Source: Octopus vulgaris (taxonomy: Eukaryota). From it: DNA of 64,000 nt. Numbering within the stretch: position 1 is the stretch's first letter; each line of letters starts with the position of its first letter. Positions 5,809-55,671 of this stretch are shown here, piece after piece. A model generated the notes under the pieces. That model had not been told where the DNA came from and searched no databases. It saw nothing but the letters and a program-made list of their open reading frames with translations. The stretch is taken from NCBI GenBank assembly GCA_951406725.2, contig OX597818.1, forward strand, positions 89,156,001 to 89,220,000, in the 5' to 3' direction. Both the position numbers and the translations under genes were made by a program.

Positions 5809-5961
<153 letters not shown>

Positions 5962-6041
5962 GTGAAAAGGAACACACGAGTTGATATATATGAAAAAACA
6001 AGTCAAAAATAGAAAATGCTAAAATAATTTTATAGTGAACA

Positions 6042-6085
6042 TTTCAGTACCGGTTTCGGTCATTTTGAGACCTTTTCAACTGTAA
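6042..6085 (-). ncRNA. Minimal type I hammerhead motif, U3-A8 core variant
   Basis: Minus strand: CAG-TTGAAAA-GGTC tcaaaat GACC-GAAA-CCGG-TA-CTG, inside a ~170-bp unit (5958-6128) flanked by (TA)n. Confidence 0.72.
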
Positions 6086-6517
6086 CGATTAAATAATTAA
6101 ATTTAGAAAAATTAGAAGAAAAGTTTTTTATATATATATATATATACATAATATTACTAACCTTATATAAATTATATAAATTACGAACGAGGTAAGCGTT
6201 TCGTTTCATTGCCATACTATAATATAGGGCTTCTCTAGTTAATAGTTGGCAATATCAATGCTGGCTGGCTGGTTGGCTGGCTGAATTCTCCAATTATGCC
6301 TTACATCATATAGGAAGAGGGGATATGTAGAAAGAGTTAAAATACATAGGTCAGAATGAGTACACATACATACCGGGGTTGGTAGCTGGCAATGACTAAA
6401 AGAATATTGCATTCATACATAATGAGAGAGAAGACGGTCACTGAAACAGAGAAGAGAGTCTAAAAGAATACTTATAGAAGTTCAAATTTATGCAAAAGAT
6501 ACGTTTTCGATGTAATA

Positions 6518-17453: not shown

Positions 17454-18243
17454 GGATCTTTACCTTTTGACCGACAGATTTAAAAAATAATTTTTTGTAA
17501 CTAAATACTTTCAAACTTCGTATACTGATAGAATGTGTCACATAAAACATATTTTACTCTTGGCGTTGTTGAGAAAATTTTGTATTTTGGAAGTTATTTT
17601 TTGTCAAAGTTGTCGTATTTCGGTAATTTCAACTAATCAATGACGTCTATTCAGCTGAATAAAATTACTGCCGTTGTTTGTCGACAACAACTTCCGGCGG
17701 TGTATATTTCGTTTGTCACTGTTATTTATGAAATATTTTATCTCAGTTACGTTTGTATGAATAAACGAGTGTATTTGAAGTATGTTTACTTCATGACACC
17801 ACCATAATCGTTCGTGCTTCATTTTTCATTTTTTCCGTAACTCTAACCCTAAAATCCCAACCCTAGCCCTAACCCTAAAGCATTAAACCTAACCCTAACC
17901 CTAAAACCCTAGCCATAACCCTAAAACCTTAAAGCTAAAACCAGTACAAACGCACGAATGATGTCATAAATAACAGTGACAAACGAAATATACGCCACCG
18001 ATAGTTGTTGTTGACAAACAACAGCAGTAATTTTATTCAGCTGAATACACATCATTGATTGGTTGGAATTACCGAAACACGACAACTTTAACAAAAGATA
18101 ACTTCCAAAATACAGAATTTTCTCAACAACGCCAAGAGTAAAATATGTTTTATGCGACACATTCTACAAGTATACGAAGTTTGAAAGTATTTAGTTACAA
18201 AAAAAAATATTTAAAAAATCTGTTGGTCAAAAGGTAAAGATCC
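17454..18243. mobile_element. MITE/foldback DNA transposon with ~280-bp TIRs, an 8-bp TSD and an internal telomere-like array
   Basis: Termini GGATCTTTACCTTTTGACC / GGTCAAAAGGTAAAGATCC; TACTCCTT duplicated at 17446-17453 and 18244-18251; degenerate (CCCTAA)n at ~17838-17942. Confidence 0.95.
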
Positions 18244-39990: not shown

Positions 39991-40089
<99 letters not shown>

Positions 40090-40310
40090 ATCATATCCAC
40101 ACATGAAATTTTCATATCGAACGGTAAAAATTTAGTCCAAAGACATAGTCTTTATTACGCATAAAATACAGTGCACATAAAATACATACGAGGAATCCAC
40201 TCATGAGATTCATCATTCTAGAAAGAACAGCTAGGTTCCAAAACCACAAAATTAGGGATAAAATCTCGAAAGGAACGAAATGAAAAATAAAAACTTTTAT
40301 CATCTAATTT

Positions 40311-40382
40311 CCTGGACCAATTGGTTTCTGATTTTAGTTTAGCAAATAAGATAATGTGCTAGGTGAAATCGTTATCAACAGG
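40311..40382 (-). ncRNA. Type I hammerhead motif, U3-A8 variant, GUC triplet
   Basis: Minus strand: CCTG-TTGATAA-c GATTT cacc TAGCA (loop) TGCTA aacta AAATC a-GAAA-CCAATTGG-TC-CAGG. Confidence 0.8.
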
Positions 40383-40383
40383 T

Positions 40384-40625
40384 ACACCTTAGATTAAATA
40401 TATAAACACGAGGCAATCAATTATATGCCACTTGTTTATACATCCTAATTCTTTCAAATCTACTGCGCAGGCGCAGCTCCTCCTCGGCAATAAAAAAAAT
40501 GCCAACTTAATTTTTTTTTTTGCCGACGAGAGCTGCGCCTGCGCAGTTGATTGGAAAAAGTTAAGATGTATAAACAAGAGGCATATAATTGATTGCCTCG
40601 TGTTTATATATTTAATCTGAGGTGT
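40384..40625. repeat. Fold-back inverted repeat with ~115-bp arms
   Basis: ACACCTTAGATTAAATATATAAACACGAGGCAATC... is mirrored by ...GATTGCCTCGTGTTTATATATTTAATCTGAGGTGT, with several mismatches. Confidence 0.93.
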
Positions 40626-40702
40626 GTATATATATATATATATAATAAAATATTTGTTTGATTTGCCTAATAGTGGTTTTATCTCTAATTTAATGTAATA
40701 TA

Positions 40703-40871: not shown

Positions 40872-41918
40872 CCTCAAACCCGGGCGAAATGGTTAGCGGT
40901 ATTTCGTCTGTCTTTACGTTCTGAGTTCAAATTCTGCCGAGGTCGACTTTGCCTTTCAACCTTTCGGGATGGATAAAAAAATTACTAGTTGCGTACTGGG
41001 GTCGATCTGATCGACTGGCCCCTTCCCCCAAAATTTCGGGCCTTGTGCCTAGAGTAGAAAAGAATATTTTAATAATCCTTCCTACTATAGACACAAAGCC
41101 TGAAATCTGCGAGAGCGGGGTTAAGGCGACTACATCGACCCCAATACTCAACTCATACTTAATTTATCGACCCCGAAAGGATGAAAAGCAAAGTCAACCT
41201 TCGCGAAACTTGAACTCAGAACTTAGCAACGGGAGAAATACCGCTAAGCATCTCGCCCTGTGTGCTAACGATTAAGACAGCTCGCCGCCTTAACTAGTAT
41301 TCTTTTCTACTCTAGGCACAAGGCTCGAAATTTTGGAACAGAGCACAGTCGATATGATCGACCCCAGTACACAACTGATACTTAATTTATCAACCCTGAA
41401 AGGATGAAAAGCAAGGTCGATCTCGGCGGAATTTGAACTCAGAACGTAAAAACAGACGAATTACCGCTAAACATTTCGCCCGGCGTTCTAACGTTTCTTA
41501 TTTCTTTATTGCCCACAAGAAGCTAAACATAGAGAGGACAAACAAGGACAGATAAAGGAATTAAGTCGATTACATCGACCCCAGTGCGTAACTGGTACTT
41601 AATTTATCGACCCCGAAAGGATGAAAGGCATAGTCGACCTCCGCGGAATTCGAACTCAGAACGTATCGGCGGACGAAATACCTATTTCTTTACTACATAC
41701 AAGGGGATAAATGCAGAGGGGACAAACAAGGACAGACAAACGGATTAAGTCAATTACATCGACCCCAGTGCGTAACTGGTACTTATTTAATCGACCCCCG
41801 AAAGAATGAAAGGCAAAGTCAACCTCGGCGGAATTTGAACTCAGAACGTAACGGCAGACGAAATACAGCTAAGCATTTCGCCCGGCGTGCTAACGTTTCT
41901 GCAAGCTCGCCGCCTTAA
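40872..41918. mobile_element. Cluster of five family B SINE copies (one plus strand, four minus strand) with two tail types
   Basis: Repeated Meta-like cores; cluster flanked by the direct repeat CTAATATTTTAATAAT. Confidence 0.88.

Positions 41919-54549: not shown

Positions 54550-55671
<1,122 letters not shown>

Follow-up and report, generated by a model that had tools for sequence, protein, structure and literature searches.

The hammerhead and the adjoining fold-back of this locus belong to one aged copy of a common non-coding repeat of about 476 bases with a predicted self-cutting hammerhead RNA. The locus lies in a 64,000-nucleotide stretch of Octopus vulgaris DNA, called the window here. 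The hammerhead/fold-back fusion is incidental and involves no dedicated module, while the motif and the hairpin themselves are real. With good confidence, we take the locus to be a truncated copy that the reverse transcriptase-endonuclease of a Penelope-type element (PLE) placed in a (TA)n tract, together with an inverted piece that forms the hairpin.

Results

Hammerhead and fold-back at the locus

The type I hammerhead runs from 40382 to 40311 on the minus strand, unit positions u1–72, as supported by the sequence, the predicted fold, the covariation over 65 copies and 126 family instances. Its stem I is CCUG/CAGG (40382–40379 and 40314–40311), the core UUGAUAA (40378–40372) has U3-A8 at positions 3 and 8, and stem II comes in two parts. 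GAAA is at 40328–40325 and stem III is the 8-nt palindrome CCAAUUGG (40324–40317). The cut is predicted after GUC, between 40315 and 40314. A preliminary description of the locus had named stem I, the core, a two-segment stem II, the palindrome and GUC, and all of them are found on the minus strand.

The motif has the N3-U-G-A-N-N8-A core, GAAA, NUH and three helices of a type I hammerhead, and the core is intact in 95 of the 126 instances. Stem II does not close directly on G12. One base stays unpaired on each side of its foot, C after A9 and A before G12; most family copies have a C/A or A/A mismatch there and a minority have an A-U pair.

The hammerhead is the minimum-energy fold at −9.5 kcal/mol, but its stability is ordinary (z −0.8), with 38 of 200 shuffles equally good. 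A locus-private A-to-C change weakens the distal stem, compared with −13.2 kcal/mol in the family majority. The descriptor scan of the 64-kb window returned this hammerhead as the single match, and shuffled windows gave one relaxed match each in 3/20 and a strict match in 0/20. No Rfam hammerhead model matches the locus and nothing reaches the gathering score; by E-value there is only microsatellite and hairpin noise.

The inverted repeat, also reported in the preliminary description, spans 40384–40625 (242 bp) and indeed starts one base from stem I. Its arms of ~116 nt agree at 106 of 115 aligned bases and the hairpin has a z of −22.8. The direct arm, 40384–40508, is the unit sequence 5′ of the hammerhead. 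The second arm, 40510–40625 on the plus strand, aligns to the unit as a head-to-head inverted copy of u360–475. The join is an A/T run next to TTTTAAAA of the unit, an 8-nt palindrome beside the fold-back apex, and the 3′ end of this arm enters a TA repeat. The inverted arm stops at u475, off the preferred 3′ sites of the family, and GTGTA there matches the TA tract.

By alignment, the main copy is a 5′-truncated unit at 40124–40508 on the minus strand, made of u351–u476 and then u1–255. It is 93% identical to the family majority and contains both the direct arm and the hammerhead. Because the locus resolves into these two segments, one hairpin arm is no more than the stretch of unit that invariably lies before the hammerhead. 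The hairpin is an inverted piece of the same repeat, and therefore the fusion is likely an ordinary by-product of insertion. That the inverted arm ends one base from stem I is probably a coincidence.

The 3′ end of the main copy is rearranged. From the sequence and the paralog alignment, 40089–40123 (minus) consists of pieces of u300–313; about u256–299 is deleted internally, and the copy ends at start site B of the family. A (TA)n tract at 40040–40080 follows the main copy, and the sequence and the (TA)4 bias of the family make it a likely insertion target. Its other half is likely the (TA)n tract seen in the sequence at 40624–40644, where the inverted copy has its 3′ end. With a single hammerhead and about 7% divergence, the family copy at this locus is likely dead. 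Next to the locus, at 40880–41483, a common short interspersed repeat is present several times, in both orientations.

The repeat family

With the hammerhead and its 3′ flank as query, the genome has 1,431 candidate places (best 40 scored), with the full unit 1,860 (best 40 scored) and with a divergent copy 4,318. An exact 22-mer of the unit occurs 323 times, against 0 for the control. The unit is cyclic (circularly permuted) and 476 nt long, at least 130 alignments cross every part at the positions sampled, and tandem copies are spaced 477 nt in L009. Two further subfamilies, of 466 and 477 nt, are 81–87% identical in alignment with unchanged ends.

The unit is non-coding, its longest stop-free stretch being 65 codons. 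None of 100 shuffles folds as well as a 428-nt copy (z −4.0). A possible promoter is suggested by TATA-like and GCGC-palindrome motifs around u385–425. A tRNA-derived SINE was rejected, as four family loci have no tRNA-like head and Rfam gives nothing at the gathering score.

The family geometry was read from 140 merged loci, reduced to 133 by dropping seven segmental-duplicate copies; the 133 were drawn from best-hit and exact-pattern matches and not at random. Main segments are longer than one unit in 56/133 and hold two complete hammerheads in 6/133. None of the 133 insertions has two full units, the maximum being 862 of 952, and the longest in another subfamily has 914 of 932. Arrays of three or more units are absent from these loci, from 35 further loci and from the first 100 of the 323 pattern matches, which include 8 head-to-head pairs. 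In L031 the tandem passages differ at 6 of 8 subfamily sites.

Segmental duplications are seen where the same insertion and flanks recur seven times (L163–L168 and L173; C17, C60) or twice (L019/L020; C8). Related units are present in contigs of sequencing runs guessed to be RNA, where ends, strand and circularity are not readable. The subfamily of L275–L289, which has C3-G8 and a perfect distal stem of 8 bp, has near-identical letters in contigs of runs X1, X2 and X4, from three studies and guessed to be RNA.

Variation of the hammerhead

Positions 3 and 8 are U-G in 73, U-A in 25, C-G in 20, C-A in 1 and other in 7 of the 126 full instances. U3-A8 is a minority, one of three recurring states. 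These three states cover 118/126, and C-A is under-represented (p 0.042). The tree of 107 copies is weakly resolved; its best version requires 14 changes for U-A, at least 3 of them forced by well-supported branches.

Position 7 takes all four bases, whereas U4, G5, A6, A9 and GAAA are each kept in at least 121/126. One distal stem II pair swaps A-U and G-C almost perfectly (116/122). The freedom of position 7 against the fixed flanking core, the 3–8 pairing and the stem II swaps argue that the fold was under selection in the source elements.

The covariation set is 65 of 72 picked copies, as 7 with long loops were left out. In it, 91.7% of cells are paired and there are 40 double changes vs 14.8 in shuffles, cell counts that relatedness inflates, while the pairs carrying a double change are not above the shuffles (5 vs 4.0). 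The 3–8 pair can form in 65/65, and double changes are absent from stems I and III. Stem III remains a palindrome in the subfamily where it is two bases shorter. It self-pairs at −13 kcal/mol in the prediction, and both features would fit cleavage as a dimer. The wobble U3-G8 majority and the stem II foot mismatch suggest that cleavage may be weak or poor.

The preliminary description held U3-A8 at the locus to be an independent occurrence, unrelated to the hammerhead family at 6042 in the window. The two are unrelated indeed, as their only match is 22 nt long (E 0.014), lies elsewhere and is found in 1/20 loci. Yet U3-A8 is a minority state of the present family (25/126) and is already known from Schistosoma mansoni, with a PLE hammerhead of about 1,300 matches (PMC4209133), as well as from two autonomous PLEs of this genome.

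Insertion geometry

The main 3′ ends of the 133 loci fall at u215–240 (54), at u305–325 (54) or elsewhere (25). Measured from the predicted cut, the two preferred ends are some 150 and 250 nt downstream. (TA)4 follows the main 3′ end in 95/133 vs a background of 8.7%. The 5′ truncation is free and variable across the copies. Head-to-head inverted segments are present in 60/133 loci and tail-to-tail ones in 0/133. The family thus has the marks of PLE mobilisation: fixed internal 3′ ends with an optional tail, 5′ truncation, head-to-head inversion and a microsatellite target.

Fold-backs, with 5′ ends within 25 nt, make up 11 of the 60 inverted loci, at scattered positions. Their enrichment is weak, 11 vs a permutation mean of 6.3 (p 0.043), and 6/11 end at the preferred site A. 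Only the window locus (1/133) has a fold-back ending at the hammerhead, and the exact junction pattern occurs once in the 2.8-Gb genome. The preliminary description had regarded the adjacency as meaningful and proposed to survey paralogs for it. With these counts, and with one arm belonging to the unit, the adjacency loses that meaning.

Among the insertions with both ends at preferred sites, 18/21 use one of each (Fisher p 0.002). In the remaining 39 end pairs, the window locus included, one end or both are off-site. Of the inverted ends, 31/60 are at neither preferred site, again including the window locus, so two-site priming does not explain every arm. These off-site ends are near the hammerhead start in 3/31 vs 1.4 expected (p 0.17).

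Rare alleles are shared with the own main copy at 16/117 in inverted arms and 19/132 in tandem passages, against 1.8% in other loci. A single event on one template lineage would give such sharing, to which local gene conversion could add. The arms of the window locus share 0/3 informative alleles, and the locus is uninformative.

The 5′ ends at the predicted cut number 10/52 vs 7.3 expected in the larger pattern sample (p 0.18), so there is no significant pile-up. Smaller samples had a 5′-end cluster at u61–76, in 8 main segments of the best-hit sample and 3/4 long copies of the pattern sample. This cluster is absent in the larger pattern sample, and the 5′ ends do not prove cleavage in vivo.

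Autonomous PLEs of the genome

A GIY-YIG search of the genome gave 6,136 candidates (top 150 scored). Many of them have an intact frame of 781 codons, which encodes RT and GIY-YIG domains and a CX4CX2C linker. This linker is tied to the Neptune and Nematis clades (PMC8557442). The 781-codon PLEs carry their own U3-A8 hammerhead about 100–150 nt before fixed 3′ ends in (TA)n. L174–L180, L133 and L144 hold an intact two-ORF PLE family (479 + 781 codons, RT and GIY-YIG) with a Neptune-like linker, in which a third U3-A8 hammerhead and, optionally, a tail of ~35 nt precede (TA)n. Its ORF1 of 479 codons has no Pfam match. Beside the PLE in L130, a further family, a hammerhead-like motif with C3-G8 and a long insert in stem II, forms an inverted pair at 455 (+) and 208 (−).

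The 6042 motif (window 5955–6130, minus) forms the 3′ terminus of a second autonomous PLE, which is very young and has a U3-A8 hammerhead. It has 100% identity in 40 listed matches, and its upstream frame is about 60% identical to the 781-codon protein. Across its family (L235–L254), an inverted segment is present in 10/20 loci, the window's own copy having none. The inverted end is exactly 34 nt short of the main end in 8/20, and 6/20 are fold-backs with 5′ breakpoints within 25 nt. These loci, whose layout is that of the 476-nt family, are good material to settle how PLE fold-backs form.

No PLE with sequence similarity to the 476-nt unit is found among 43 GIY-YIG-containing loci and 20 loci of the 6042 family. 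A search for linked PLE ORFs, as also proposed earlier, gave no PLE protein match in the 64-kb window and no coding flank common to the 140 family loci, where PLE protein matches occur in 6/140 and not as shared flanks. The unit was rejected as an autonomous EN+ PLE itself, the RT + GIY-YIG frame being absent. Since no sequence-similar autonomous PLE was found, we infer the partner enzyme from the layout alone.

The preliminary description further linked the hairpins and ribozymes of the window to one insertion mechanism. A Penelope-type one suits the hammerhead and the fold-back, with inversions in 60/133 loci here and 10/20 in the 6042 family, but its extension to the window's other hairpins at 17454–18243 and 54550–55671, which match neither the unit nor the PLE proteins tried, is unsupported. 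The former is MITE-shaped: terminal inverted repeats of ~280 bp (91%) enclose TAACCC-like repeats. The latter is a palindrome with ~560-bp arms that mirror even microsatellites and agree at 98% in the inner 243 bp, and may be an assembly artefact.

Discussion

By its architecture, the element is likely a retrozyme-like non-autonomous PLE passenger with a predicted hammerhead and a presumed partner. In the proposed course of insertion, the PLE protein would cut both strands of the TA tract. Two cDNAs would start at two internal sites of the RNA, one per target strand, and both would stop and then be joined head to head. Those stopping near the same position would give a fold-back. Two internal RT start sites, extension of both strands and AT-rich targets are described for a PLE (PMC11167929), and inverted 5′ copies, a tail at one end and junction palindromes for others (PMC8557442, PMC3846280).

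We see even chances that the RNA copied is a circular monomer, which weak and dimer-dependent cleavage by the hammerhead plus ligation would yield and which would be read for more than one round. Minimal PLE hammerheads are known for low activity and opposite-strand pairs, and circles have been proposed for them (PMC4209133). We hold the full scenario only tentatively, somewhat short of even: a ~476-nt circular RNA with an attenuated hammerhead, its 3–8 pair drifting among C-G, U-G and U-A, would be copied in a rolling circle by a PLE dimer that primes both strands at two internal sites.

A linear source has a comparable, slightly less than even, chance. The template would then come by read-through of a master tandem array or from a deleted PLE terminal repeat, with a weak or dispensable hammerhead. 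No insertion reaches two units and the 5′ ends have no significant pile-up at the predicted cut, both as a linear template would give, and the subfamily differences between the tandem passages of L031 agree with it. Moreover, hammerhead mutants leave the insertion of an anole PLE in vitro unaffected (PMC11167929). However, a master array of at least three units did not turn up in the 133 + 35 loci or the first 100 of 323 pattern matches. The tandem passages share rare and subfamily alleles and would need repeated homogenisation, and the hammerhead stems covary.

The fold-back could instead arise by snap-back, which we consider rather unlikely. A cDNA would fold at TTTTAAAA/A-run, be copied back to near the hammerhead and join the TA target, or a longer arm would be trimmed later. 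The palindrome beside the apex and the arm end off both preferred sites speak for it, self-priming has been proposed for PLE junction palindromes (PMC3846280) and 6/10 inversions in the young 6042 family are near-perfect fold-backs. Yet snap-back alone predicts neither the site A ends of 6/11 fold-backs nor the alternation of paired ends, and the off-site inverted ends show no significant excess near the hammerhead start. Far less probable is selection for the pair as a module, with the long hairpin regulating or priming the adjoining hammerhead. The one-base spacing and the very stable hairpin invite such a reading, but it faces the single occurrence in 133 loci and in the genome, nine uncompensated mismatches between the arms and the independence of the two folds in the predicted structure. 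A MITE (DNA transposon hairpin) inserted by chance beside a solo hammerhead has a next to negligible probability in spite of the long terminal-looking inverted repeat with TA flanks. The top matches of the arm run on into the hammerhead as one unit with no second arm, and the MITE was rejected as the terminal inverted repeats are not common to the copies.

The fusion is thus ordinary and the family is what is useful, as thousands of short non-coding copies record PLE-type insertion geometry. Because they do so, two questions become testable: PLE mobilisation of hammerhead circular RNAs and two-end priming. The family is also a natural series of hammerhead cores for cleavage assays, with C-G, U-G and U-A at 3–8 and the stem II foot mismatch. 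If the circular-RNA reading is true, the copies would be direct genomic evidence of PLE machinery mobilising animal retrozymes and a statistical handle on the formation of pLTRs, tails and inverted ends. We found no literature description of the ~476-nt family, most subscription papers and the repeat databases being outside the search; the available part of PMC13282606 has no mention of ribozyme or retrozyme.

Compared with known systems, the family stands between PLEs and retrozymes. The Chlamys non-autonomous PLEs such as MRC1 are likewise non-coding passengers forming pLTRs with head-to-tail insertions (PMC8557442). As far as described there, the 3′ end generally shows resemblance to an autonomous family and most of them have no hammerhead, whereas no such resemblance was found for the unit here.

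Features in common with the EN+ PLEs (PMC4209133, PMC8557442, PMC3846280, PMC11167929) are truncation at the 5′ end, partial tandems, a copy inverted head to head, palindromes at junctions, microsatellite targets and two RT start sites with an optional tail between them. Their pLTR hammerheads share the extra base after A9, G10.1-C11.1 and the palindromic stem III. In contrast, the unit has no RT/GIY-YIG frame and a tail of about 90 nt vs 30–40 in those PLEs, and its 3–8 pair is mostly U-G and switches among three states.

With the metazoan non-LTR retrozymes (Cervera and de la Pena 2020, PMC7229834; Li et al., preprint 10.64898/2026.07.22.740005), the family shares a non-coding, low-GC, structured unit that has one type I hammerhead in each monomer and continues head to tail, and both coexist with autonomous PLEs. 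It is, as a non-LTR retrozyme should be, a non-coding head-to-tail unit with one hammerhead and high self-pairing. A mismatch at the foot of helix II, as in this family, is also reported for an axolotl motif (PMC7229834; 10.64898/2026.07.22.740005). Retrozymes are 150–450 bp (PMC7229834; 10.64898/2026.07.22.740005), while the unit here is slightly above, its copies are dispersed and shorter than two units and arrays were not seen. Its hammerhead is of the PLE type but theirs is canonical (PMC7229834; 10.64898/2026.07.22.740005). PLEs have been proposed as the mobilisers of retrozymes, with pLTR homology in Xenopus (PMC7229834, 10.64898/2026.07.22.740005). Where that mobilisation is a proposal (PMC7229834; 10.64898/2026.07.22.740005), the fixed 3′ ends, TA targets and head-to-head inversions are seen here.
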